From contig JALQXX010000003.1 in NCBI GenBank assembly GCA_023262965.1, positions 3,996 through 67,995 on the forward strand: 64,000 bases of DNA. The letters are read 5' to 3'. Shown one piece after another: positions 29,961-53,213 of this stretch. Every line of letters starts with the position of its first letter. Position 1 is the stretch's first letter. The stretch comes from Candidatus Marinamargulisbacteria bacterium (lineage in GTDB: Bacteria > Margulisbacteria > Marinamargulisbacteria > UBA817). Under the pieces are notes generated by a model, which saw nothing but the letters and a program-made list of their open reading frames with translations, was not told the DNA's origin and made no database searches. Made by a program: the position numbers and the translations under genes.

Positions 29961-30323
29961 TTAATGAGGGGCTCCGGATGAATCCATAGGGGTAACAGTA
30001 ACTGGCGATTTATAGTTGTAGGGACGCTCAACTATATCTGTAATGGCGCCACGGCCTTCAATATCAATAAACGTAAACAAGAAGAATAATACAATAGCCA
30101 TGACCGCCCCAAATACAAAAATTAAATTAGCACGCTCCCAACGCAATCCCATAAAAAAAGCGCCGACCAATCCAGCCTTAATTAGGGCGATTAAAATGGC
30201 CACCGGTGTGTGCAAGACGCCTAAATCAATACGCGAAACAGCCACCGTAATAACGGTTAAAATAATCAAGGCTACAAACGTTCCTTGATAATATATTTTG
30301 GGAATAACTACATGATTTGCCAT
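29961..30323 (-). CDS. ctaF: Cytochrome c oxidase subunit IV (prokaryotic caa3-type)
   Basis: 120 aa with 3 TM segments and LIKAGLVGAFFMGLRWE. It lies directly downstream of ctaE. Confidence 0.7.
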   Translation of the reverse strand: MANHVVIPKIYYQGTFVALIILTVITVAVSRIDLGVLHTPVAILIALIKAGLVGAFFMGLRWERANLIFVFGAVMAIVLFFLFTFIDIEGRGAITDIVERPYNYKSPVTVTPMDSSGAPH

Positions 30324-30334
30324 TTAAATATACC

Positions 30335-30961
30335 TCACAATAAATAGAGTAGCGGAAATAAAAAAATCCATACAATGTCGACCAAATGCCAATATAATCC
30401 AACCATTTCAATTGGCGTGAAGTAATCGCTATTAACGGTATTTTTAGCCACACGAGCCATTATCCAAACAATTAATCCAATACCAATCAAAACATGCAAT
30501 GCGTGCAATCCTGTAATTGTAAAATACAATCCAAAAAATATATGCAATGTATCGAAAGGGCCCTCGGCATTAAAGTACATACCTGGGTAGTATCCATGCG
30601 CAAATTTGGCTTGGTATTCAAACGATTTAATAACCAAAAAACAGGTGGCCAGTGCAACCGTTGCCCCCAAATTAATCAGTGTTTTTTTGCGATTACCATG
30701 TTGGGTGTGATACACGCCCATGACCATTGTAAAACTACTAATGATTAAAAAAATGGTATTAATAAATCCCAGCTTCCAATCCAATAGAGAACTGGCGTAA
30801 TGAAACATCTCCGGATTGTAAAAACGATAAACCGCATACGCTACAAAAAGACCACTAAAAAACAATACTTCTTGTGCAATAAATGCCCACATACCAACCT
30901 TGCAGGCATTAAATTCTTGAGCTTCGCTGGCGAAATAATGCGGTAATGCACGTTTACTCAT
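30335..30961 (-). CDS. ctaE: Cytochrome c oxidase subunit III
   Basis: COX3 family ([15 protein letters not shown]). The start is taken at the internal Met, [10 protein letters not shown], which avoids a 68-nt overlap with ctaD. Confidence 0.85.
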
Positions 30962-32537
30962 GAGATGACGCCTTATAATCATAGGGAGGACTTGTAACAA
31001 CCGGGGTTTTTGAGAATGCATGATATTGTGGAGGGGAGTCGGTTAACCATTCAAGTGTCAATGCGCCCCAGGGATTTTTATCGGCTTTTTTACCACTGCG
31101 AAGGGACTTAACCAAATAAATAAGCATCACAATAAAACCAATAGCAATAATCCATGACCCAACGGTTGATATCTGATGATATATCGCAAACTCATCCACG
31201 TAATTATAGTAACGACGTGGCATACCTTTTGATCCCATAATAAACTGAACAAAAAAGGTCATATTAAACCCAATAAATATTAACCAAAACGCCCATTTTG
31301 CTAAGTATTCAGAATACATTTTTCCAAACATTTTTGGCCACCAATAATGCAACCCACCCAAAAAAGCGTATAACGTACCACCAAACATAACATAATGAAA
31401 ATGGGCCACCACAAAATAGGTGTCATGCAAATGAATATTGGTTGACAATGTACCCAAGAAAATACCTGTAAACCCACCAATCACAAATAAAAACAAGAAG
31501 CCTAGAAAATATAAAAAAGGTGTTTCAAACGATATCGACCCTTTATACAAGGTAGCAATCCAATTAAATATTTTAACCCCAGATGGAATGGCAACCAAAA
31601 ACGTTAATATAGAAAATAACGTGGCCGCCAACTCGGATTCGGACGTATACATATGATGTCCCCACACCAAAAACGAAATAACAGCAATAGCAATACTCGA
31701 CATCGCGATAGCTTTGTAACCAAATATATTTTTTCTAGAAAATGTGGTTACCAGCTCACTGATAACACCCATGGCAGGCAGAATCATGATGTAAACTGCT
31801 GGATGGGAATAAAACCAAAAGAAATGTTGAAACAAAACGGGATCGCCACCAATGGCAGGATCAAATATACCAATGCCCCACATACGTTCAAGAATTAATA
31901 AAACCAATGTGATGGCTAAAACAGGGGTTGCTAAAATTTGAATGATCGATGTGGCATATAGTGACCATGCAAATAAAGGCATACGAAACCATGTCATTCC
32001 TGGTGCGCGTAAGTAATGAATGGTTGCAATAAAATTAACCCCTGTTAAAATCGAAGAGAATCCCAAAATAAATGCCCCGACAACCATTGTAACAACAGCG
32101 GTATCGGTTGTTGTTGAGTACGGTGTGTAAAATGTCCAACCCGTATCGATACCCCCCATAAAAATACTGAGAATACACACCAATGCACCCAAAATATATA
32201 CATGAAAACTGGCCAGATTCAGCTTAGGAAACGCGACGTCATTGGCACCAAGCTGTAAGGGCAATATAAAATTACCAAGTGTTGCTGGAATCGATGGAAT
32301 GATAAATAAAAATACCATAATAGCCCCATGCAATGTAAAGGATTGATTATATTGCTTGGCAGTTAGTATTAATTGATCGGGAGTGAATAGCTCCAATCGA
32401 ACCAATAACGCGGCAAACCCACCGACAGCAAACGCGCCAAAAACGGAAAATAAATACATGATACCAATGCGCTTATGGTCTTTTGTAAATAACCAACTCA
32501 GGAGGCCTTTTTTTTCAGTAATGTAATTTTTCATCAA
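30954..32537 (-). CDS. ctaD: Cytochrome c oxidase subunit I
   Basis: 527 aa with [28 protein letters not shown] and the heme a/a3-CuB ligand histidines. Confidence 0.95.
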
Positions 32538-33496
32538 TCAGATAACTCCTTTATGTATTCAATAATAGCTGTAATTTCTTGATCAACCAATAGCCCCTGA
32601 TAAGAGGGCATTACCGGTTGATATCCTGTAACAATATGTGCTTGCGGATAATTAATAGATTCAATTAAATAGGCTTCATCGGCAATACGTTCACTGCCAT
32701 CTGTAAATACGCGGTTGGCGTTGTATAGATTTTTCCATGTCGGGCCCACCATGGGGGATCCATCAATGGAGTGACAGGCGACACATCCTTTTTTTGTGTA
32801 CAATTGCTTTCCTGCCTCACTTAATGGAATCGAGTCATCAAAATCAACCGCTTTCAAAAATGCGTAATAATCATCATTCGACATAACTTTTAGAGTTGCC
32901 AACATGTTGGAATGTTTGTCACCACAATACTCGGTACAAAATATACGGAAGTTGCCAATTTTTGCAGGCTCGATGGTTAAGACAGTATAACGGTTTGGAA
33001 TAACATCGCGTTTAATGCGTAGATTGGGCAAATAAAAACTATGTAAAACATCGGTGCTACTCAATATCAACTTAACGGGTGTGTTGACGGGCACAACCAA
33101 ATCACCAATGGTTTTTTTGCCATTGGGATAAGTAAATTCCCAAAACCATTTTTTCCCGGAAACATAAATGGTGGTTGCATTGGGTGGGATGCTTCGCATT
33201 AACATATACTGCTTAAATCCGAGCCAAAAAATAAAAAGAACCAATAGGGTTGGAACGACTGTCCAAATAATTTCCAAGGGGATGTTATGTGTTATTTGTT
33301 TTTCAGCCAGTTGATCGGATGACTTTCGTTTACTAGTAATTAAAAACCAAGCACTAACACCGATCAATCCCACCATAAAAATTACGGACAGCCATAATAT
33401 AAAATAAAACAGTGTATCAAATTCACCCAATGTAGCTGAAATGTTACTTGGTAAAAAAAACGTTCCTTTTTCTGTTAAATTCTGAATAATCTCCAT
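32534..33496 (-). CDS. ctaC: Cytochrome c oxidase subunit II with fused C-terminal cytochrome c domain (caa3-type)
   Basis: CuA motif H...[12 protein letters not shown] plus a C-terminal CVACH heme-binding site. Confidence 0.9.
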
Positions 33497-33500
33497 AGTA

Positions 33501-34274
33501 CTACCGTTGTCTTTCCTTATAAATAAAAGTCCCTATTATTGTAAATAATATCAACACAGTTATCAAGCTAATAATCCGAAGAATTTTAAAAATAAGCAAT
33601 GAGTAGGTCTGTTTGCTTGGATCAAAATAGTAGCAGTACGTAATAATTTTTTCGCGCAGGGTTTTTTTGTCTTTTAAATTCATAAGTGAATAATCAAAAT
33701 GGGTGGGCTCGTAGGTTACCCCTTCAATGTAATTGCTAATACCGTTTTTGTAGAAAAATAGAACAGACGGATGAGCATAATCATTGGTGCGCTCAATATA
33801 CTCATAATTGTATCCAAAAAAACGTGTTATTTTTTGGATTGTATCGGAATCACCTTTTAAAAATAACCAGCCATTGGGGATATCTAAACTGTCCATGTAT
33901 TTCTTCTTGTAGGTTCGTAAATTGGTGTTACTTTCTTTTGGATCAATGGACACTGTAATAATTAAATAATCGTTTCCAACACGATAGCGAGATTCTTTGG
34001 CAACTTCAGCGAGACCATCCAATGTTAAGTGACATAGCATTGGGCAATTTAGGTATACAAAATTAATAATGGTGGGTTTCTCATGCATTAAATCGGCTAT
34101 GTTGATTAATTTATCATAATCATCGGTGAGAATAATGGGCTCATTTAATACATTTCCTAAAGTGACATCTACCCCAACATTTTGTAGGGGATAAGGGACA
34201 TCTGCAACCGCAATTTTAACGAGTGTAATGACGATATATAAGATAAATGGCATCATCAATTGTGACTTTTTCAT
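33501..34274 (-). CDS. SCO1/SenC copper chaperone
   Basis: Thioredoxin-fold CxxxC motif FVYLNCPMLCHLTLDGL; 257 aa with an N-terminal TM segment. Confidence 0.85.
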   Translation of the reverse strand: MKKSQLMMPFILYIVITLVKIAVADVPYPLQNVGVDVTLGNVLNEPIILTDDYDKLINIADLMHEKPTIINFVYLNCPMLCHLTLDGLAEVAKESRYRVGNDYLIITVSIDPKESNTNLRTYKKKYMDSLDIPNGWLFLKGDSDTIQKITRFFGYNYEYIERTNDYAHPSVLFFYKNGISNYIEGVTYEPTHFDYSLMNLKDKKTLREKIITYCYYFDPSKQTYSLLIFKILRIISLITVLILFTIIGTFIYKERQR

Positions 34275-34497
34275 CGTTTTGTTCGGATAATGTTTTTAGC
34301 TCATATTCGCGAAGATTGTGGAGATCCAATCCGACCCCATAATTCATATTATTGCGGTTTTTTTGATTGCTCACTTCGCTTTTAACCATGTAAATGGTAA
34401 CAATAGAAATAATGAAAATCGCCACAATAGTCAGTGTTATGGATATCACTGTAGGGGCTAACAATGGTTCGGTTTTATCATACTGCATACGGCTCAT
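34216..34497 (-). CDS. Small single-TM protein between actF and SCO1 (candidate ActG-like accessory subunit)
   Basis: 93 aa. Its start overlaps the actF stop by 4 nt. It has one hydrophobic helix and a charged C-terminal tail. Confidence 0.35.
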   Translation of the reverse strand: MSRMQYDKTEPLLAPTVISITLTIVAIFIISIVTIYMVKSEVSNQKNRNNMNYGVGLDLHNLREYELKTLSEQNDEKVTIDDAIYLIYRHYTR

Positions 34498-35657
34498 ATT
34501 GCGTTCTCCACATGTTTAGATTCCTCTAATCGAGGGTCGTTTGTTGGTATAATAGCATATCGACATATTTTATTAATCAATAACGATGTCAGAATAATCA
34601 AGAATGATATCATAATTAAAATCTCCAACCAAGATATGTGGGAGCTAGTCGTAAAATTGGGCCATACAGCGTACCGAATATCTAAATAATGCAATGCAAG
34701 AATAACAATGCTGAAAAATAATCGTCCGACCAGATGGCGTTTCACATGGCGTGACATAAACCCAAAAAGAGGTAACACAAAATGACCAATAGCCAATACA
34801 TAAAAAATAGTCCCCCATTCACCCGTTAATCGGGGATAATACCATTGGGTAAATTCGGGAATATTGGCATACCAGGTTAGAAAATACTGGGAGAATGATA
34901 CGTAGCTCCAAAAAATAATAAACCCATAAAATAGTTTAGACAATTCATGCATGTGCTCGTTGCTGGGTAAGGTAGTGGATTTTGTCATCAAACGATAGAT
35001 ATCGTATCCCAAAATAGTACAGGATAAAGCGGCTACCATGCATCCGGCAAAAAAATTAACCCCCAATATTGTGGAGAACCAATGGGGGTATAGTGACATA
35101 ATCCAATCAAAGGCCATAAATGATGTTGCCAATGATAAAAAAAGAATGGCGACAGGGGATTTTTTTTGTAACGACGCGGTTATTTTCGCTGCCGCATCGG
35201 GATTACTATCCTGCTCCAACGATTTTCGCCAGTAATAATATCCTACGGTCGAAAATACAATGCAGTAAAGTGCATTTCTAATGATAAAAAACGGTAAGTT
35301 TAAATAGGGCGCTTTTTTTTGGAGTAAATAATCACCGGCTACTTCAACAGGATTCAGCCAAATAAATAAATGATCCAATCCAAATAATAATGGAATAAGA
35401 AACAAGGAGAATAACGGTAGGAAACTCATAAAATGTTCGGGAATACGCTTAACAGGGACTCCCCAACCGGCTCGAGTAAGATGCATCAATAGTAATAAAA
35501 AAGCCGCTCCAATACTAATTGATAAACCATACAAAAAAACCACTAAATACGATACATAAAATGCGGTAGTGGTGTAATACAAACTGAACATGATACCTAA
35601 AAGTCCAAGGCCACCCAAAACCAGTAATTTCAATTGTTGCTGTAGCGTTTTAGTCAT
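34494..35657 (-). CDS. actF: Alternative Complex III subunit ActF (NrfD-like membrane subunit)
   Basis: 387 aa with ~10 TM segments, a paralogue of ActC. It is the last of the act genes. Confidence 0.65.
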   Translation of the reverse strand: MTKTLQQQLKLLVLGGLGLLGIMFSLYYTTTAFYVSYLVVFLYGLSISIGAAFLLLLMHLTRAGWGVPVKRIPEHFMSFLPLFSLFLIPLLFGLDHLFIWLNPVEVAGDYLLQKKAPYLNLPFFIIRNALYCIVFSTVGYYYWRKSLEQDSNPDAAAKITASLQKKSPVAILFLSLATSFMAFDWIMSLYPHWFSTILGVNFFAGCMVAALSCTILGYDIYRLMTKSTTLPSNEHMHELSKLFYGFIIFWSYVSFSQYFLTWYANIPEFTQWYYPRLTGEWGTIFYVLAIGHFVLPLFGFMSRHVKRHLVGRLFFSIVILALHYLDIRYAVWPNFTTSSHISWLEILIMISFLIILTSLLINKICRYAIIPTNDPRLEESKHVENAI

Positions 35658-36210
35658 TGTTTTTTCCTTGCTTAATTAATGATACGTCGTGAGGAGTTAT
35701 ACGGGTCATTTTTTGAAGTGATCGAACATATAGCACAACTTGCCAAATGGATACATTGGTTAATTTGTTACCATATCCGGGCATGGTTCGAATACCGTTT
35801 TGAATAATATCATACAATTCCTGATCCGATTTATTTGCAGTGACATCCTCCAGAATATTGCTCACAACCCATCCTTTAGACGAAATAATACTTTTGGTGC
35901 CGTTACCCGTTTTTGTGTGACACGTTGCACAATAAATCGTGTAATTTTTTTGACCTTCTCGAATAAAATCTTCTGTAATGACGAAGTCCGATAAAGGGGC
36001 TTGTGTTGTCGTGTGACCATAAGGAACGGTGTTTGCGGGAATCGGTAACGGATCCCGTTGCGGGCGAATTTTTGGTTGAAAATCAAAATTAATGTTCGGA
36101 TGCACAGGAGGCTTTTCGGTTGTCCAACCGCGACATCCCATGAAACCAATGAGACAAAGCCCGTATATAATAAATCGTTTAATGGTTAATTGCTTCAATG
36201 TTTTTTCCAC
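35650..36210 (-). CDS. actE: ACIII monoheme cytochrome c subunit ActE
   Basis: Single CxxCH (CATCH); 186 aa with a signal/lipobox-like N-terminus. Confidence 0.7.
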   Translation of the reverse strand: MEKTLKQLTIKRFIIYGLCLIGFMGCRGWTTEKPPVHPNINFDFQPKIRPQRDPLPIPANTVPYGHTTTQAPLSDFVITEDFIREGQKNYTIYCATCHTKTGNGTKSIISSKGWVVSNILEDVTANKSDQELYDIIQNGIRTMPGYGNKLTNVSIWQVVLYVRSLQKMTRITPHDVSLIKQGKNND

Positions 36211-36706
36211 CTGATCTCTCTAAAAATAATTTTGTTTTTTCGATATCAAAATTTTTGTCATCTGAAGAAATAGCCAAAAAAAAGCCCGAACACGTCGCTT
36301 TTTTTATAGACTCATTATTAAAAATGGGTTGATTCCATTGAGGCAATTTATTGATTGCGAACATTCCAAACACCGTAAAAAAAGCCGTAAATAGAATGGT
36401 CAATTCGAAGGTTACTGGTACAAATGCTGGTAATGCTACAAATGGTTTTCCTGAGAGGGCAATGGGGTAATCAAATCCATTTGTCCATACTTGTAAAGCA
36501 ATAGCTCCGGTCAATCCAATCAAACACCCTATTAACGATAAATACGGCACACGGCTCAATGGAATACCCATGGCTTTATCAATTCCATGAACAGGAAATG
36601 GTGTATAGGTGTCAAATTTAATATAGCCGGCATGATATACTTTTTTAGATAAATCCAACAAGTCTTTTGGATTATCTACTTCGCATAAATAGCCAAAAAT
36701 GCTCAT
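36179..36706 (-). CDS. actD: ACIII membrane-associated subunit ActD
   Basis: 175 aa with one TM segment, positioned between actC and actE as in canonical ACIII operons. Confidence 0.55.
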
Positions 36707-38097
36707 AGTTGGCCTCCTTTTTTCGTATGCGATTCGTAATGATGTGGATCAGCAATTGCCATCACACCTTTTACTTCAGCAATAGATATAATTGGTAAAA
36801 ACTTTAAGAACAACAAGAACAATGAGAAGAACAATCCAAAGCTACCAACAAAAGTCATGATATCCACCCAGGTCGGTGTGTAATAATCCCAGGATGAGGG
36901 TAAAAAATCACGGTGCAAGGAGGTCACTGTGATAACAAATCGTTCGAACCACATGCCGATGTTTACAAAAATGGATATAATAAACATTACGGGTATGCTG
37001 GTGCGTAATGATCGAAACCAGAAAAATTGAGGGGATATAACATTGCATGAAATCATAATCCAATAAGCCCATGCATAGGGGCCAAAAGCGCGATTAACAA
37101 AAGCAAATGCTTCGTACTGATTTCCAGAATACCATGCCATAAAAAATTCCATTGCATAGGCATATCCCACCATTGTTCCTGTAGCTAAAATAAATTTATT
37201 CATGTTTTCTAAATGGCGTATGGTTACAAGATCTTCTAAATTAAATATTTTTCGAGCAATAATTAATAAGGTTAATACCATGGCAAAGCCTGAAAAAATG
37301 GCTCCAGCAACAAAGTACGGAGGGAATATAGTTGTGTGCCATCCGGGCAAATTGGATGTTGCGAAATCAAAACTAACAATCGAGTGAACCGAAAGAACCA
37401 GTGGTGTTGCAATTGCCGCCAAAATTAAATACGCTTTTTCGTAATTAATCCACTGTCGGCTTGAGCCCGACCAGCCTAACGCAAAAAAACCGTAAGCCAA
37501 GCGTTTTACACGGGTTTTTGCGCGATCACGAAATGTCGCTAAATCAGGAATTAATCCCACATACCAAAACAATAAGGATACTGTAAAATACGTGCTAACC
37601 GCAAAAACGTCCCATAATAACGCGCTTTTAAAATTGGGCCACATGGCCATTGAATTGGGAATAGGGAATAAATAATAGGCCAACCAAATACGGCCAACGT
37701 GAATACCCGGAAAAATACCCGCGCAAATAACGGCAAAAATAGTCATGGCTTCTGCAAATCGATTAATAGACGTGCGCCATTTTTGTTTAAATAGAAATAA
37801 TATGGCGGATATAAGCGTTCCGGCATGTCCGATACCAACCCAAAATACAAAGTTAACAATAGCAAAACCCCATCCAACCGGATTATTAAGACCCCAAACA
37901 CCAACCCCGTCCCAAATAAGATACCCAATCATAGCAAATAAAATACAGGCTACGGATGCTGAAAATAATACGCCAACTACCCACCATTTGGGGGCTTTCG
38001 CCTCAGCTGGTCTGGCTATTGCATCGGTTACATCTTTAAATGATTTGTCCCCCAAAACCAGAGGGACGCGATGAATTTGTTCATTAATGGTGTTCAT
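36703..38097 (-). CDS. actC: ACIII quinol-interacting membrane subunit ActC (NrfD/PsrC family)
   Basis: 464 aa with ~10 TM segments, belonging to the NrfD family. Confidence 0.8.
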
Positions 38098-40972
38098 GTG
38101 GGGTTTCCTTCCAAACAGATCGTTTTATTTTTGCCAAATAAACAGTTCGAGGTTTTGTATTGAGTTCATTTTGTAGTAAATCGTAACGACGTTTGCTGGA
38201 TCGAGCAGCCTGTAATGGATGATTTTTTTGATTGATATCGCCAAATACAATCGCATTGGTAGGACAGCTTTGCTGACAGGCTGTTTGAAGCCCATCAATA
38301 GGCGTGCCGTGCAATTTCTTTTGCAATTTTGCATGACTAATACGCTGAATACAATACGTACATTTTTCCATAACCCCTCGCATACGAATGGTTACTTCTG
38401 GGTTGAATTGTTTTTGTGTTGGTGCCGATGGCTCACGAAAATAATCGAACAAATGAATACGCTTTTTTTCAACCGATTGGGGATTCTTTTGATGCCAATC
38501 AAAAAAATTAAATCGACGCACTTTGTAAGGGCAATTATTGGCACAGTATCGCGTACCAATACAGCGATTGTATGTCATTACATTCAGACCTTCATCATCG
38601 TGAACCGTTGCATTTACCGGACACACCTGTTCGCAGGGGGCATTTTCACAATGAACACAGGCCACTGGCATATAATTAATGGTAACATCATTGTGGTCAT
38701 TTTCTATAAAATACCGATCAATACGTATCCAACTCATTTCACGCCCTTTAATGACCTCATCCTTGCCCACAATAGGAATATTGTTTTCGGCTTGACAAGC
38801 AACCGCGCATGTATGGCAACCGATACAAGCGTTTAAATCAATAGACATGCCCCACTGATGCTCACCTGTATATACTTGTTCTTTAAAGAGGGAATGAATA
38901 TGATGGTCATCATGATGAGCATGATCCAATTCAGCGATTGTTTTAATATGAAGAATATTCTTAATACGATCTTTAATCCCCGATGCCGCCAACGACTCTT
39001 CATCCAATCCATGATTCATTTGGGTATCGGCTAAGGTTACATGCTCATTTGTTTTAGATACCGATTGAATGGGATAATGCCCATACGGATCTAATCCATC
39101 GGTAGAAATACCGTAACCGGAAAACGTGGTCTGGTAAATAGCCCCATACCCATAATTGATGGAAATAGTTGCACGGTTTTGACCTGGCAAAATGATAACG
39201 GGTCCTTTTAATCGTGCATCAGCAACATCAATGGTTACAACATCACCGGTTACAAGATGATTTTTTTTGGCAAAATCCGTATTAATAATAAATGCGTTGC
39301 CCCAGGTTAATTTTGTAATGGGGTCGGGGGTTTCATGCAACCAGGCATTATTGGCATAACGTCCATCAAGCATGTAGTACGATGGCGACACAGTTAGGGT
39401 TAAATCATTGCGTATGGTTTCTGATGCAGAAAAAGCGATGGGGGCTTTATTGATACGTAGGGATGCTAGAGATTTGCCCACAATAAATCCTTTTGATTTT
39501 AGTTGATCAAAAGATTGATTATATGATTTGAGCAACGTCTGCACCTGTTGATAAACGGTGAACGATGACCCCACCAAAGCCGTTAAAACATCGGCATGTG
39601 AGAGCACATCGGGATACAACGGTTCAATGACAGGCTGTTGAATGCATATATGATTATGATCGCTTTTGAGTAATCCCCACTCTTCTAAAAAGTGAGTTCC
39701 AGCAATATGTATGGCAGAAAATGCGCTAAGGGCATTTCGATAATTACACACATTAATAATTAATGCATTGCCAACTACATCCGAAAAATTGGGCATGAAT
39801 CGTGGCAAATCAACTCCAAAAGAAATCACCGTTTTAATACGGTTGGTTTGAAACACGGTGCGAATTGCATCAATGGTATCATTAAATGGTTGGATCGTAG
39901 CCGATGAATCGGAATAGGGTTTAATATGAACTGTGCTGCCGTTGTTTTTTAAGACGGTATTAATAGCCAGGGCCAGTGCGTGATAAACGGATTCAAAGGC
40001 CGCTCCCACCATAACAATTGCCGCTGATTTATGAGACAGTAATGAATCAACTAACGGATTTAATTGATTGGTATCCACCATGGTTGTGTCGACATTAATA
40101 GTCTTTAAGATGGCTTTGTCAATTTCGGTGCCATATTGAGTAATAACACGATGGGCTAATGCTTTAATAAATTCACGTTGATGTGAAGGAGATTGATTTA
40201 TAATACGATCTGCTTTTGAATCCGTCATCGATAAATGACTTGAAACGGATACATGCATTATATCAGATTGATGGGTCATGTACGACTGAAGTGATGCAAT
40301 GTTCTCAGACTCGAGCCCTAAAAAATCGGATTCAAAATTAAGAATGAATTTTGTTTTTTTGAAATTGTAATGTAAAAATCCCCGTTGTCCCGTAAAGTGA
40401 TAAATGGCATTGTTTTGATTTCCATTCATCAATGGATCGACAATAAACACATGGGATTTTTTTACAGATTTTAAAAGTGATTCAATAACCATTGAGTGGT
40501 GATTGGGCAACACTAATAACGTACTGTCATCCAACGATATATTGCCCAGCACATTTTTTATGGTTAATACATTGGCATAGTCACCATTTAATGTATGTGT
40601 TTTAAGGCGATCGGGATCATATAGTTGCTGAATTTCGGCCTGAATATGAGCCGATGAACGACCGTTATTTTCAGGGTAATCGGGATGACCATCTAATTTG
40701 GTTGGACGTCCTTCATAGGTTGTGGCCAATAAACTGTTAACACGATTATTAATAACGGCACTGGTTGCATAATAGTTGGGCAATCCAGGAACGGTTGTTG
40801 TTGATTCATGGGTATACGTTTTAATAATTTGTTTGGGTTTCCGTATGGATACACATCCCGATAACGCCGCCACGGTCATTCCCGTAGATAGGGATTTCAT
40901 AGCCTCGCGACGCGTTTTAGGCGACGAGAACAACGTTGTTTTAAATTCACTTTTATTATCTATCGATGACAT
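38084..40972 (-). CDS. actB: ACIII subunit ActB (molybdopterin-oxidoreductase-like domain fused to a 4Fe-4S ferredoxin domain, with Tat signal)
   Basis: N-terminal twin-arginine motif [11 protein letters not shown]; 962 aa with multiple CxxCxxC...CP cluster motifs in the C-terminal third. Confidence 0.85.
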
Positions 40973-41610
40973 ACACTACAAGCCTCTCCGGGGTTCACAT
41001 TATACGTTTCTTTTAACTGAAGCCCCAATTTTAATTGATTATCTGGTCTAAAATCCAAGTTAGTGACCTGTTCTTTAGGCCATAAATATTTCTCAGGTTC
41101 CCGATGACACTCTAAGCACCACCCCATACTTAATGGTTTCGCTTGATATACAGTGGTCATTTTATTCACATTTCCGTGACATTGAACACACGATACACCG
41201 GAATTAACATGAGCGGCATGGTTAAAATAAACATAATCGGGAAGCATATGGACTTTAACCCAATCAATGGGTTTTTTCTGATTATGATACTCGGTTAATG
41301 TTTTGATTGCGGGGGAGTCAACTTTAATGGTTTTATGGCAATTCATACAGGTCTCGGTTGTAGGAATATTGGAATGACCCGATACCTCGACATTGGAGTG
41401 ACAGTACCGGCAATCCATTCCAACTTGATTGACATGGAGTTCATGAGAAAACGGAATGGGTTGCTTGGGCTGATACCCCACTTCTAAATGTTTGGGAGAA
41501 AACCAAAACCAAAACAAATGAATGGTTATTCCCAAAATAAGTGTAAGACCAACTAAAACAATAATTGGGAGATAATTAAACCATTTTGGGAATAACTGCT
41601 TACTGGTCAT
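40960..41610 (-). CDS. actA: ACIII pentaheme cytochrome c subunit ActA
   Basis: Five CxxCH motifs (CRYCH, CMNCH, CVQCH, CLECH, CSVCH) and an N-terminal TM anchor. Confidence 0.85.
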   Translation of the reverse strand: MTSKQLFPKWFNYLPIIVLVGLTLILGITIHLFWFWFSPKHLEVGYQPKQPIPFSHELHVNQVGMDCRYCHSNVEVSGHSNIPTTETCMNCHKTIKVDSPAIKTLTEYHNQKKPIDWVKVHMLPDYVYFNHAAHVNSGVSCVQCHGNVNKMTTVYQAKPLSMGWCLECHREPEKYLWPKEQVTNLDFRPDNQLKLGLQLKETYNVNPGEACSVCHR

Positions 41611-41611
41611 C

Positions 41612-43936
41612 TTAAAACAATACTACGCCATATTTTAAAATTAGACCAACAAAAACAACGGACACAATGGTCATCAGTTTTAATAAGATATTTAAAGATG
41701 GCCCCGCCGTGTCCTTGAATGGATCGCCAACCGTATCACCAATAACGGCAGCTTTGTGGGCATTGGTACCTTTTCCACCATGCGCACCTTTTTCAATATA
41801 TTTTTTAGCGTTATCCCAAGCCCCTCCCGAATTATTGAGCATAATGGCCAACGAAAAACCGGTTGCAACACCCCCAATTAATAGCCCCAATACACCAGCG
41901 ACACTTAATACAAACCCTGTCACAATCGGGACTAAGATGGCGAGTAGGGATGGTAAGATCATTTCTTTTTGAGCCCCAATGGTGGCAATTTCCACACATT
42001 TTGCATATTCAGGGGTTCCCTTACCGTCCAAAATACCTGGAATCTCACGAAATTGACGACGAACTTCTTCGACCATTTTCCCTGCCGCGCGACCAACCGC
42101 CAATATGGTTAATGCACAAAAAACAAATGCGGTCATGGCACCAATAAAAAGACCAATTAAAAATTTTGGATTAATGGCATTGATATGGAATATGTCAATC
42201 AATTTCAACATATCCAAATGCGGAATATAAAATATGTTTTTGGATTCGTTTACTAATTGCTCAATATTTGTGAACCCAATAGCGCCTATTCGATGAATGC
42301 CATCAAGAGCAATACGACCCAGCCATATTTTAATGGAATCAATATAGGCTGCAATAAGAGCCAATGCGGTTAATGCAGCTGATCCAATCGCAAACCCTTT
42401 CCCGGTAGCGGCGGTTGTATTGCCTAAAGAATCCAAGGCATCGGTACGTTCACGGACGGATGGATCAAGGCCAGACATTTCCGCGTTTCCACCCGCATTA
42501 TCCGCAATGGGCCCAAAAGCGTCTGTAGCCAATGTGATTCCCAAGGTAGAGAGCATTCCAATAGCGGCAAATGCAATACCATAAATACCACTAACAATCG
42601 ACTGGGATCCGCCAGAAAACAAAAAGGCGGCAATAATACCAATGGATATAATAATAACCGTAATTCCGGTAGATAACATTCCCACAGAAATACCTTGAAT
42701 AATGGTTGTTGCGCCGCCCATAACCGAGCTGTCCGCAATGGATCGTGTGGGACCATAGTGGTCAGACGTGTAATATTCGGTGACTTGGCCAATGAGGACC
42801 CCTGAAACAAGTCCCGCAGTTACGGCACCAAATACACCCCAAGAAATAAAGTCAATGTAGGCCAAAAAAGCAATAAACACCAATGTGAGTGCAGCGGATA
42901 TGTTGGTACCACGATGCAATGAACCCAACAAGCTTTTTTGATCAGCGCCCTCATTCGTTTTTACTGTGAAAATTCCGAGGATGGAAAAAATAATTCCGCC
43001 ACCGGCTACAATCATAGGGGATAAAATGGGGCGAATATCCACACCAAATTGATGGGCATTGGCTAGCATTAATGTAGCCCCAAGCGATGCGCAGGCCAAA
43101 ATAGACCCACAATACGATTCGTATAAATCGGCGCCCATACCGGCTACATCCCCAACATTGTCACCAACATTATCCGCAATGGTTGCCGGATTTCGAGGGT
43201 CATCTTCAGGAATGCCCGCTTCAACTTTTCCCACCAAATCGGCCCCCACGTCGGCGGCTTTGGTGAATATACCGCCACCAACACGGGAAAACAACGCCAT
43301 AATAGACGCTCCCATACCATAAGGTAAGAGAGATGTGGTTAACTCATTAAATTTATATGCTTGAAAGGCATCTAGGGATATCAAACTAGAGGACCAGTAG
43401 GTGGCCCCAATACTCTTCAAAAATCCATTTGAAATACCCAGTATATTGTGATCAAAAAATACATTTAAAAGAAAAAACCATACGGAGATATCCAGAAGAC
43501 CAAATCCAACAACAACCAACCCCATAATGGCACCGGCACGAAATGATACACGCAATCCGCTATTTAGGGATGTTTGACAGGCATTCGCTGTACGGGCACT
43601 GGCATTGGTAGCCGTTTTCATGCCTAAATAACCACATACCCCAGACCACAATCCACCACTCAAAAATATGAAGGGCACAAATGCATTTTGAATGCCAAGA
43701 GCGGCCATTCCCAATAGCAAAACAAAAATGACGCCAAACACATAAATTATAATTTTGTATTGGCGGTTTAGGTAGGCCATGGCGCCTTCTCTAACATATT
43801 GGGCAATCTCTTTCATACGCGGGGTCCCCTCACTTTCGCGGGATACACCAATGTAAAATAACCGGGCGGTAATTAAAGCAACCACAGCAGCGAGTGGCGC
43901 AAGATACCAAAGTAATGGGATAATGTTCATTTTCAA
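41612..43936 (-). CDS. hppA: Membrane-bound proton-translocating pyrophosphatase
   Basis: GDNVGDNVGDVAGMGADL and DNAGG motifs; 774 aa with ~16 TM segments. Confidence 0.95.
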   Translation of the reverse strand: MKMNIIPLLWYLAPLAAVVALITARLFYIGVSRESEGTPRMKEIAQYVREGAMAYLNRQYKIIIYVFGVIFVLLLGMAALGIQNAFVPFIFLSGGLWSGVCGYLGMKTATNASARTANACQTSLNSGLRVSFRAGAIMGLVVVGFGLLDISVWFFLLNVFFDHNILGISNGFLKSIGATYWSSSLISLDAFQAYKFNELTTSLLPYGMGASIMALFSRVGGGIFTKAADVGADLVGKVEAGIPEDDPRNPATIADNVGDNVGDVAGMGADLYESYCGSILACASLGATLMLANAHQFGVDIRPILSPMIVAGGGIIFSILGIFTVKTNEGADQKSLLGSLHRGTNISAALTLVFIAFLAYIDFISWGVFGAVTAGLVSGVLIGQVTEYYTSDHYGPTRSIADSSVMGGATTIIQGISVGMLSTGITVIIISIGIIAAFLFSGGSQSIVSGIYGIAFAAIGMLSTLGITLATDAFGPIADNAGGNAEMSGLDPSVRERTDALDSLGNTTAATGKGFAIGSAALTALALIAAYIDSIKIWLGRIALDGIHRIGAIGFTNIEQLVNESKNIFYIPHLDMLKLIDIFHINAINPKFLIGLFIGAMTAFVFCALTILAVGRAAGKMVEEVRRQFREIPGILDGKGTPEYAKCVEIATIGAQKEMILPSLLAILVPIVTGFVLSVAGVLGLLIGGVATGFSLAIMLNNSGGAWDNAKKYIEKGAHGGKGTNAHKAAVIGDTVGDPFKDTAGPSLNILLKLMTIVSVVFVGLILKYGVVLF

Positions 43937-51672: not shown

Positions 51673-52143
51673 GTGAGATATCTAATCATTATGGTTATGG
51701 CCTCTTTTTTGTGTGTCGCTCAGGATGCAAATGCGCCGGCTACTCGTGGCAATACGGCTACCTATGGCAATGCCGCCACCTACGGTGATGCCGCCACCTA
51801 CGGTGATGCCACCACCTACGGTGATGCCACATCATCACTTCTTTACGATCAGACCGCCCTTAATCTTGAAGCCGCAATCTATGATATGAATCGGCGTCAT
51901 AATGCCGTTGCTTATAATATCGCAAATGCCTCTACCCCAGGCTTTCGACCCATTCGCTATGATGATGAAATCGCAGAAGCTATTCGACTCTATGGTACCA
52001 CTGAAATGCTCAATGATGTGAATGTGGATGATGAGATGGTTAAGTCTACTAAAATTCGTTTGAAACATAGTGCCTATATTCGGCTACTGACCACCAAAAT
52101 AGGGATTACCAAAAAGGTGGTGACGTTAGGCAAGGGTGCCTAA
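51673..52143 (+). CDS. flgB: Flagellar basal-body rod protein FlgB with ~50-aa N-terminal extension (hydrophobic segment plus 6-aa tandem repeats)
   Basis: The core LLYDQTALNLEAAIYDMNRRHNAVAYNIANASTPGF matches FlgB. The GTG start 51673 is supported by RBS TAGGAG with a 6-nt spacer. No alternative in-frame start lies downstream of the repeats. Confidence 0.75.
   Translation: MRYLIIMVMASFLCVAQDANAPATRGNTATYGNAATYGDAATYGDATTYGDATSSLLYDQTALNLEAAIYDMNRRHNAVAYNIANASTPGFRPIRYDDEIAEAIRLYGTTEMLNDVNVDDEMVKSTKIRLKHSAYIRLLTTKIGITKKVVTLGKGA
51744..51815 (+). repeat. 4 x 18-nt in-frame tandem repeat (gccgccacctacggtgat-like) encoding (A/T)ATYG(N/D) inside flgB
   Basis: Seen directly in the sequence. The four units differ by 1-3 nt. 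Confidence 0.7.
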
Positions 52144-52267
52144 CCTAGCGGGTGGGATTTTTCGAATATCTGCGTTAAGTGTGGTCCTCCGATCCTCATT
52201 TACTAAAGTAAACTCCGGTTCTCACACCACACTGTGCCTTGATCTTCAAAAAATCCCACCCGCTAGG
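52144..52267. repeat. 124-bp nested palindrome immediately after the flgB stop
   Basis: A perfect 19-bp inverted repeat: CCTAGCGGGTGGGATTTTT (52144-52162) and AAAAATCCCACCCGCTAGG (52249-52267). An inner 7-bp inverted repeat: AGTGTGG (52178-52184) and CCACACT (52227-52233). A central TTTAC-taaa-GTAAA hairpin at ~52200-52214. Confidence 0.7.
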
Positions 52268-52285
52268 GACTTGCACTCGTATACC

Positions 52286-52500
52286 TCCTCGTTTACTAAC
52301 GTAAACTCGGAGCCCCTTCTACAGTCGCTTTCCTCGTTTACTAGCGTAAACTTGGCGTCCTTCCTACAGTCGCTTTCCTCGTTTACTAGCGTAAACTTGG
52401 CGTCCTTTCTACAGTCGCTTTCCTCGTTTACTAACGTAAACTTGGAGTCCTTTCTACAGTCGCTTTCCTCGTTTACTAGCGTAAACTTGGCGTCCTTTTT
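52286..52500. repeat. Tandem array of 4.7 x 45-bp direct repeats, each containing the GTTTAC-TARC-GTAAAC hairpin
   Basis: Units begin at 52286, 52331, 52376, 52421 and 52466 (partial). The consensus is TCCTCGTTTACTARCGTAAACTTGGMGTCCTTYCTACAGTCGCTTT, with 1-4 mismatches per unit. There are no spacers between units. Confidence 0.8.
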
Positions 52501-52766
52501 GCACCCATTTGCCGCGTTTAATCCCCCAAACGTTGCTTTATTTTTCTGCTTCGGACTGATTGCGTTTTTTTTGGTGGATTTGAGTTTTATTCAAAATGAA
52601 CCTTTTCAAACCTTGGTTTATTTTGTACAATCAAATGGTATGATGAGCGGATTTCTTCAATGGTTTCAAACTGTTGTCACATCGTGTAGCCCTGTTGCAA
52701 AAAAAATTAAAACCTATTTATTGGATTGCTTTAGCCCACCCCTATCCCACTTTGGATCCCTAGCCT

Positions 52767-53213
52767 ATGATTTTTAAAATTAGTGTTTTGCTTCTTGCTC
52801 TTTTTGTATACGCTTTCCCCCAAAAAAGTGGCGCTATCGATGCCCTTAATCTATCCGGTAATGGTATGCTCGTTCAAAAATACCGCCTTCGTATTATTGC
52901 CGAAAATATCGCCAATGTCTCCACTCATATGACCGATCGCGGTGAACCCTATCGTAAAAAATACGTTATGGTTGTCCCCGATAAACACGGCGTTCGCGCC
53001 GCTGGTATCATGGAATCCAATGCCCCCTTCGGCCAAATATTGGACCCAGGTCATGTCTTCGCCGATCAACATGGGATTCTCCGTACACCAAATTTTGAAC
53101 TTAATGACGAAATGGTTAATCTCTCTTACTCAAACCTACTCTATGAAGCCAATACCACCGCATTTAAATCGTCACGACAAATGTTTCAAAATACCCTCGA
53201 GCTCCTTAAATGA
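52767..53213 (+). CDS. flgC: Flagellar basal-body rod protein FlgC with hydrophobic N-terminal extension
   Basis: IDALNLSGNGMLVQKYRLRIIAENIANVST matches the FlgC N-terminal motif. The C-terminus LYEANTTAFKSSRQMFQNTLELLK is typical. It is preceded by (M)IFKISVLLLALFVYAFPQKSGA. The only in-frame alternative start (TTG 52788) still leaves the hydrophobic segment. Confidence 0.8.
   Translation: MIFKISVLLLALFVYAFPQKSGAIDALNLSGNGMLVQKYRLRIIAENIANVSTHMTDRGEPYRKKYVMVVPDKHGVRAAGIMESNAPFGQILDPGHVFADQHGILRTPNFELNDEMVNLSYSNLLYEANTTAFKSSRQMFQNTLELLK

Follow-up and report, generated by a model that had tools for sequence, protein, structure and literature searches.

Why should flgB and flgC, neighbouring genes of a flagellar operon, be held 623 bp apart in one bacterium when its relatives leave no space between them at all? 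The question is raised by a stretch of DNA of 64,000 nucleotides (the window; positions are counted from its first letter) from a Candidatus Marinamargulisbacteria bacterium (assembly GCA_023262965.1, contig JALQXX010000003.1), in which the TAA stop of flgB lies at 52141-52143 and the ATG of flgC at 52767. A first-pass annotation, made from the letters of the window, had described in this gap a nested palindrome followed by a tandem array of 45-bp units, and had offered as explanations a flagellar attenuator or decoupler, an iteron-like array of binding sites, a structured RNA and a non-autonomous mobile element. We show here that the gap is a lineage-specific insertion in one Margulisbacteria species and that its palindrome is a member of a dispersed, multi-genome family of ERIC type. 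It is likely, in our judgement, that the flgB/flgC junction was split by an ERIC-type miniature transposable element with inverted repeats (MITE) together with a minisatellite derived from the same element family.

The flgB-flgC gap is an insertion

We compared the junction in the window with those at 12 loci of relatives, drawn from five FlgC clusters in which FlgC is 70-90% identical. At all 12 loci the stop of flgB and the ATG of flgC either overlap or meet without a spacer, the junctions reading …GGCGGCTAATG… or …TGATG… (overlapping TAATG/TGATG) or placing stop and ATG end to end. Since no relative has a spacer at this junction, the 623 bp are an insertion specific to this lineage, and the two genes are indeed unusually far apart, as had been remarked from the window by itself. 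The insert is carried by all seven contigs of the same species, which come from six samples, and is made up of the palindrome, the adjoining 45-bp minisatellite and a unique tail of 268 bp. The pentamer GCCTA is repeated at both ends of the whole insert. An inverted repeat joining the termini of the whole 623 bp was not significant (score 15, with 14% of shuffles as high), and the composite does not carry at its two ends the transposase-matched terminal inverted repeats (TIRs) of a classical MITE such as BrickBuilt.

A long palindrome directly behind flgB

The flgB TAA stop directly adjoins the palindrome, with 0 nt between them. The 19-bp outer inverted repeat CCTAGCGGGTGGGATTTTT is perfect, as the first-pass annotation had it, being found at 52144-52162 on the plus strand and at 52249-52267 on the minus strand (2 matches against 0.01 expected), and a repeat search extends the arms to 42 nt at 81% complementarity. 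The inner inverted repeat, AGTGTGGT/ACCACACT, is likewise present; it had been put at 7 bp and forms 8 bp in the fold. The 124 nt are predicted to fold at -57 kcal/mol on the plus strand (z -9.7) and at -65.3 kcal/mol on the minus strand (z -11.5). The motif TCCTCRTTTACTARMGTAAACT occurs six times in the 64-kb window against 0 expected, at the centre of the palindrome and once in every array unit and nowhere else, so that the link which had been drawn between palindrome and array through a shared hairpin motif holds.

The palindrome belongs to a dispersed family

We scanned one genome per species, 185,579 species in all, for the exact 22-nt centre of the palindrome, and recovered 48 loci in unrelated genomes where about one chance match was expected. 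The hosts are Bacteroidota (Flavobacteriia, Crocinitomicaceae, Bacteroidaceae, Chitinophagales and Amoebophilus), Gammaproteobacteria (isolates of Litchfieldella and Halomonas, and Cellvibrio, Chromatiales and Berkiella), one Melainabacteria metagenome-assembled genome (MAG), with copies on three contigs, and one Bdellovibrionota MAG, some phyla being represented by single MAGs. The motif is intergenic at 46 of the 48 loci and nearly always forms the top of a hairpin of 100-150 nt, whose arms vary from copy to copy yet stay complementary. Two further boxes are conserved, CTGCGTTA in one arm and GCCTTG in the other, and the palindrome in the window has both. On the opposite strand the family core reads CAAGGC, the apex CCGGAG-TTTAC-NNTA-GTAAA-TGAGGA and TAACGCAG, carried on variable, covarying stems; the apex loop itself varies (TAAAGT, TAGAGT, TAACGT), and conservation does not reach beyond the hairpin. 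Next to the copies lie housekeeping genes of unrelated kinds (efp, the Pol III alpha subunit gene dnaE, purL, the gene of an Fe-S assembly protein, tRNA genes). No recurrent mobility gene, whether transposase or RAYT, was found near the copies, and clustering of the neighbouring proteins returned orthologous housekeeping genes only.

The common structure was captured with covariance models. RNAalifold on a plain MAFFT alignment recovered the apex only, and gapless seeds and a covariance model were used instead; with eight gapless seeds RNAalifold gave 31 pairs, 23 of them with compensatory changes. A model built from seven foreign copies, with both the window and ERIC excluded (R1), finds 56 copies in the 48 loci, 8 of them without the exact seed motif. 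R1 scores the palindrome of the window over its full length at 67.3 bits (52154-52257, minus strand, E 1.8e-14), and a second model rebuilt from the 56 copies, again with no window or ERIC sequence (R2), scores it at 76.9 bits (E 3e-16) against a best background match of 13.4 bits in 65 kb, the E-values of both models being rough. In the R1 alignment 89% of cells are paired, against 64.5% in shuffles and 37-47% in slid controls, and 361 cells are compensatory against about 120 expected; the alignment is fitted to the model and its pairing somewhat inflated, and plain RNAfold energies agree in most loci. These observations establish the palindrome as a member of the dispersed family, and for the palindrome the proposal of a non-autonomous mobile element of MITE or REP-like kind is upheld, by an ERIC-related dispersed family and by the absence of the insert from relatives.

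Outside the invariant apex the imperfect pairs are strongly biased, with 96 G:U plus U:G against 10 A:C plus C:A. Because G:U so far outnumbers A:C, the structure is taken to be selected in single-stranded form on the strand that reads …CAAGGC…CCGGAGTTTACTTTAGTAAATGAGGA…TAACGCAG…; for the window copy that strand is the minus one, which runs antisense to flgBC.

A scan of viral sequences for the apex gave 0 matches, and BLAST against phages and plasmids matched only one copy, in the cultured species Legionella adelaidensis NCTC12735 (NZ_LR134418.1, locus L073, 1467-1571), which scores 62.3 bits. This copy starts at the last bases of the tRNA-Leu gene that ends a Gly-Cys-Leu tRNA cluster, and copies in Berkiella also lie between tRNA genes. 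A sub-family in Flavobacteriia and Chryseobacterium-like MAGs (L026, L028, L030, L033, L050) keeps the apex and one arm; its other half is replaced and has a small extra hairpin, GAAAGCTTTGCTTTC, and the model matches it at the apex only. Rfam gave no matches in the window and only tRNAs in 14 family loci, the best sub-threshold match being raiA-hairpin at E = 9.8, and the suggestion of a structured RNA thus found no support among known families. A literature search with the apex sequence returned one irrelevant match.

Relationship to ERIC

The family consensus resembled the ERIC (enterobacterial repetitive intergenic consensus, or IRU) element, and this resemblance was then tested with the models. 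The ERIC between ybhJ and ybhI of Escherichia coli reads …GGAAGGCGACAAGTGAGTGAATCCCCAGGAGCTTACATAAGTAAGTGACTGGGGTGAGCGAACGCAAACGCAG… and carries all three boxes, ordered and spaced as in the family. R1, in whose construction neither ERIC nor the window took part, scores it at 34.1 bits over its full length; R2 gives it 36.1 bits and the pgk-fbaA copy 34.1 bits, again over the full length and with noise at or below 13.4 bits. The 44-mer of the ERIC primers is present at 100% identity in 5426 of 5426 complete E. coli genomes, at a median of 9 places per genome.

The two elements are alike in size (124 bp in the window, 127 bp in ERIC), in being imperfect palindromes that form one long hairpin, and in the order and spacing of their boxes (AAGGC, GGAG-YTTAC-N4-GTAAR-TGA, AACGCAG). 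Both are intergenic within operons, the E. coli pgk-fbaA copy being comparable to the one described here, both are recognized by the same covariance model, and both are placed beside stop codons in a preferred orientation. They differ in host, ERIC having been described from Enterobacteriaceae and Vibrionaceae, and in their arms, those of the window copy sharing no sequence with ERIC; the apex differs at 5 of about 24 positions, and a TA duplication is not demonstrable for the window copy. The relationship rests on the core and the structure, not on the arms, and as the host lies outside the described range of ERIC we use the term superfamily for the wider group. Reviews describe ERIC as a 127-bp MITE of Enterobacteriaceae and Vibrionaceae with terminal repeats, TA termini and target duplication, which is transcribed together with the genes beside it. 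Copies at the 3' ends of genes are described as affecting the stability of the upstream mRNA, depending on their orientation, through an RNase E site unmasked by ribosomes. A census of 2024 found MITEs to be largely genus-specific.

Among other dispersed elements, REP/REPIN sequences with their RAYT enzymes are similar in being short palindromic intergenic repeats that conserve structure over sequence, implicate a single-stranded form and occur in tandem clusters. They differ from the present family in that REPs are GC-rich, 20-40 nt long, species-specific and marked by a GTAG-type motif, whereas no IS200-like RAYT or other recurrent gene stands near the copies that we examined. A reading as attC-like sites was rejected, as it is the centre that is conserved here and not the ends.

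Placement at stop codons

The orientation of the copies relative to genes follows a rule. For each copy we took the nearest gene whose 3' end faces it, using mechanical ORF (open reading frame) calls at loci L008-L056 and L070 and in the window (37 element copies). Where the model match lies at most 20 nt from the facing stop, 17 copies have their G:U strand antisense to the gene and 3 have it sense; farther than 20 nt from the stop the numbers are 3 antisense and 10 sense (Fisher p = 0.0007 between the two sets). Each of the 17 stops adjacent to antisense copies is TAA or TAG, where the baseline share of TGA is 22% (p = 0.016). Often the terminal stem includes the neighbouring stop codon, suggesting that the elements insert into the TA of stops. 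The window copy, 0 nt behind the flgB TAA, and two E. coli copies fit the orientation rule. In Yersinia, ERICs adjacent to stops are reportedly of one orientation and distant ones of the other. The reviews of ERIC drawn on here contain no statement of the stop-codon placement rule itself. A TA target duplication would be consistent with reading the arms as CC-TA-[GCGGG...CCCGC]-TA-GG; across the family, naive stem extension, a crude way of looking for terminal TAs, found TA..TA in only 2 of 42 copies.

The 45-bp array

The second component of the insert is a spacer-less tandem array with one hairpin per unit, much as the first-pass annotation described it. Tandem Repeats Finder gives a period of 45, 93% matches, no indels and 4.7 copies across 52286-52498, a copy number that is not exact because every short-read contig of the species ends inside the array. 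Each unit consists of the ERIC apex module, in the form TCCTCGTTTACTARCGTAAACTYGG, and a linker of 19-20 nt. The module matches the apex of the palindrome at 21-23 of 26 positions, and the linker resembled nothing else in a similarity search. As hairpins the units are weak, with z values of -1 to -2.8. Degeneracy is greater at the edges of the array than in its middle, a pattern to be expected where slippage or unequal exchange expands and homogenizes a minisatellite. Different samples have different unit variants; the array is polymorphic, or at least unassemblable from short reads.

The repeat search that had been proposed as a test for a dispersed family divides the insert in two, for the palindrome is dispersed and the 45-bp unit is found at no other locus. 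The unit is present in none of the 48 family loci from the 185,579 species genomes, in a scan that allowed its TCCTCG variant, and it gave 0 matches in a metagenome collection which evidently lacks the samples known to carry the array. An array of the apex without the rest of the element occurs in no other host. The only tandems seen elsewhere are of the whole element, one in a Chromatiales MAG (L048, 4074-4365; period 116, 2.5 copies, at a contig end) and one in a Berkiella MAG (L055, 2786-3068; period 124, 2.3 copies, between tRNA genes). We likewise know of no ERIC with an apex-only tandem array beside it. Two types of repeat array were considered and rejected: the units stand head to tail without spacers, unlike a CRISPR array, and the gene downstream is flgC and not an endoribonuclease toxin gene, as it would be for the RNA array of a type III toxin-antitoxin system (ToxI/CptI-like).

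A precedent for a MITE that contains a minisatellite is BrickBuilt of Porphyromonas gingivalis, which encloses a spacer-less minisatellite of 23 nt between a leader and a tail. Like the present insert it is a non-coding intergenic composite with unique flanks and a spacer-less tandem array, its copy number changes between strains, and gene-calling programs place spurious ORFs along it. The two are unrelated in sequence; the TIRs of BrickBuilt are shared with IS elements, none being significant here, and the repeat unit of the present array comes from a hairpin apex that belongs to a different element family.

A reading frame across the insert

One plus-strand frame is free of stops across the whole 623-bp insert, with 13 stops in each of the other two, and a formal ORF uses this frame to bridge the two genes, beginning within the last codons of flgB and ending 8 nt past the flgC ATG. 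We think it unlikely that this ORF is translated, either into a new repeat-containing small membrane protein or in a way that keeps flgB and flgC coupled and protects 623 nt from Rho-dependent polarity. The placing of its two ends would suit such a role, the probability of the open frame arising by chance is about 0.002, and ERICs have been reported to carry ORFs; its GTG start, by contrast, lies right against the only purine-rich stretch, which gives a poor Shine-Dalgarno-like spacing. Codon usage is gene-like in the tail (0.236 against a gene mean of 0.33) and negative in the palindrome (-0.22) and the array (-0.13), and the +1 frame of the tail scores equally well once stops are ignored. 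The unit variants seen between samples amount to about 8 non-synonymous to 2 synonymous changes, and a search of 5.8 billion proteins found no homologue except the ORF itself, nor was there any Pfam match. The first-pass view of the ORF as non-coding is therefore mostly supported, by homology, Pfam and codon usage, and the stop-free frame stays odd. The ORF is probably not a conserved protein gene, and its open frame is unexplained; one reading is that the frame may be kept open so that ribosomes can traverse the insert.

The 268-bp tail has no homologue outside the contigs of the same species. Promoter-like sites in the region of the insert are no more frequent than in shuffles, and inspection of the tail by eye gave no convincing match to sigma-54 or sigma-28 promoter motifs. 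The end of the tail (52730-52762) contains CCCACCCCTA and TCCCAC…CCCTAG, which resemble the right arm of the palindrome, ATCCCACCCGCTAGG, and may be the remnant of an older element arm; the match was not significant in a shuffle test.

Possible effects on the operon and competing explanations

We envisage that the element inserted at a TA, which could be the TA of the flgB TAA stop, that of a CCTAGG site or that within the GCCTA flanking the whole insert, and that the array then grew by replication slippage or unequal recombination, varying between strains. The insert would be co-transcribed with the flagellar operon, its -57 kcal/mol hairpin starting at the flgB stop. By analogy with the ERICs of Yersinia, ribosomes terminating at flgB could melt the 5' arm and lay bare a 3' arm sensitive to RNase E, so that the upstream flgB and downstream flgC-fliE-fliF segments of the mRNA might acquire different stabilities, and direct translational coupling of flgB to flgC would be lost. 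An effect on the organism, if there is any, is probably on the stability of mRNA segments and on flgB/flgC coupling.

A dedicated cis-regulatory RNA, that is, a multi-hairpin attenuator, terminator or processing platform that sets the flgB:flgC ratio, seems to us quite improbable, and the first-pass proposal of a flagellar attenuator or decoupler is not sustained. A very stable hairpin does stand right after the flgB stop with five further small hairpins behind it, and six samples of the species carry the insert as a fixed feature. Yet it is absent from every related genome examined, the weakness of the unit hairpins is hard to square with such a function, and no Rfam family covers the region. 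Elsewhere the family sits between genes as unrelated as efp, dnaE, purL and tRNA genes. No terminator-like site was found in 52144-52766, where regional counts equal the shuffle expectation and no U-tract follows the hairpins; an intrinsic terminator or attenuator was accordingly rejected, there being no GC-rich stem with a U-tract in this interval.

The wobble bias and the better folding of the minus strand raise another thought, namely that the region holds on its minus strand an independent small-RNA gene or an antisense RNA, whose product would be the conserved single-stranded structure and would have its target in flgB/flgC mRNA or elsewhere. That strand even has a promoter-like site (52669-52640) which points into the array. 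We regard this as very unlikely: sites of that kind are no commoner here than in shuffles, the orientation of the family tracks the position of the neighbouring stop and not a conserved promoter, and conservation ends with the hairpin.

A single-strand origin like ssoA, in which a CS-6 (TAGCGT) loop would prime the lagging strand, or an iteron site whose repeats would bind a replication protein, can be dismissed almost entirely: the units do carry GTTTAC-TAGCGT-AAAC, and ssoA sequences are similarly long imperfect hairpins (~130-160 nt) with a TAGCGT or TAGCGA terminal loop and a conserved RSB box, but RSB lies 5' of CS-6 in ssoA where the GCCTYGAAAA-like box lies 3' of it here, TAGCGT is not conserved among the family's loops, the copies lie in intergenic chromosomal DNA, many to a genome and none near a rep gene, and no rolling-circle plasmid or phage was matched. 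The earlier suggestion of an iteron-like array finds no support either, there being no replicon context and no plasmid or phage match.

The explanation that we prefer, an ERIC-type MITE with a minisatellite of the same family, has points against it too. Nothing related to the 45-bp unit or to the tail turned up elsewhere, and for this reason we only infer their origin. Identity of the apex among the 48 loci follows from the construction of the search. Plain global alignment of the window copy with ERIC gives a z of only 2.2, which is weak because the arms of the two share nothing, and the covariance scores of ERIC are moderate. A flanking TA pair is obtained for the 124-bp palindrome only by assigning 4 bp of its arms to the target. 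The 64-kb window has a single copy and about 55 kb of the relatives' loci have none; other hosts show several per 8-kb locus. The mRNA has the weaker form of the hairpin, since the structured strand runs antisense to flgBC. Finally, the open plus-strand frame over the 455 non-redundant nt has a chance probability of about 0.002. On balance the insert is best seen as selfish DNA tolerated by the operon, with at most a secondary regulatory effect, and not as a purpose-built flagellar regulator.

The genes around the insert

Table 1. Coordinates of the insert, its parts and the two flanking genes, in positions of the window
Feature	Position	Strand	Basis
flgB (rod protein)	51673-52143	+	ORF; sub-threshold Flg_bb_rod Pfam match; orthologues and gene order
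Formal 213-codon ORF bridging flgB to flgC	52136-52777	+	ORF list
ERIC-type palindromic element, 124 bp	52144-52267	- (structured, G:U-pair strand)	Covariance models, fold
Outer arm P1	52144-52162		Perfectly complementary to 52249-52267
Conserved internal box CTGCGTTA (TAACGCAG on structured strand)	52170-52177		Family alignments; AACGCAG in E. coli ERIC
Conserved apex module TCCTCATTTACTAAAGTAAACTCCGG, hairpin TTTAC-TAAA-GTAAA	52193-52218		Motif counts, family alignments
Conserved internal box GCCTTG (CAAGGC on structured strand)	52236-52241		Family alignments; GAAGGC at the same place in E. coli ERIC
Second outer arm P1	52249-52267		Repeat search, motif count
18-bp spacer between palindrome and array, possibly a decayed part-unit	52268-52285		Read from the sequence
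Minisatellite, 4.7 x 45 bp, decaying into ~52516	52286-52498		Tandem Repeats Finder, repeat search, motif count
Unique T-rich tail of the insert, 268 bp	52499-52766		100% conserved in same-species contigs
flgC	52767-53213	+	ORF; sub-threshold Pfam match; 82 homologues, several named FlgC at source

The two genes are divergent, with Pfam scores below threshold only, and their identity follows from the gene order flgH-flgI-orf-sigma-flgB-flgC-fliE-fliF and from the source names of their homologues. The names of homologues and the gene order also place the host in Candidatus Margulisbacteria / Marinamargulisbacteria. Within flgB itself, 51747-51830 is an in-frame 18-bp tandem repeat of about four copies that encodes ATYGNAATYGDAATYGDATTYGD, a second minisatellite within the flgB-flgC pair; it adds about 28 residues that are missing from FlgB of all relatives (156 residues against 124-130). 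The N-termini of FlgB and FlgC are hydrophobic and signal-peptide-like throughout the Margulisbacteria lineage (51673-51740 and 52767-52835 in the window; loci L057-L061), an odd feature in rod proteins, whose export runs through the flagellar type III system. Elsewhere in the window, about 12 kb (30001-42000) have a G+C content of 0.37-0.41 against 0.42-0.51 in the remainder, with a shift of GC and AT skew, and may be an island.

Implications

For the bacterium in question, the extra space between flgB and flgC is put down to mobile DNA and not to flagellar regulation, and the gene of 213 amino acids called across the insert is to be treated with suspicion.

The implications for ERIC are wider. 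ERIC elements have been used as typing targets for 30 years. To our knowledge neither the enzyme that mobilizes them nor the reason for their conserved centre is known. On the evidence of sequence and model matches, the same core is present in at least five phyla (Bacteroidota, Gammaproteobacteria, Melainabacteria, Bdellovibrionota and Margulisbacteria), a span that goes beyond the reviews drawn on here, which call ERIC enterobacterial and vibrionaceal; the wider family may have been described already. We put forward tentatively, as an idea with a real but minority chance of being right, that ERIC is one branch of a cross-phylum superfamily defined by a conserved core of about 85 nt (two boxes and a 26-nt apex), covarying stems, strand-specific selection in single-stranded form and landing in a fixed orientation at the TA of TAA or TAG stops. 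Such a superfamily would imply a widely conserved partner that reads the apex, and the 45-bp array would then be a multimer of the recognition module. Candidates for this putative partner would be a nuclease or an RNA-binding protein of the host, or a mobilizing enzyme that acts in trans.

The five-phylum core, the strand-specific wobble bias and the orientation rule at stop codons together offer comparative leverage on ERIC, and cultured carriers are at hand in Legionella adelaidensis NCTC12735, Litchfieldella rifensis CECT 7698 and E. coli. The covariance model can be used on all genomes, and correlating its matches with gene content could expose the missing partner.

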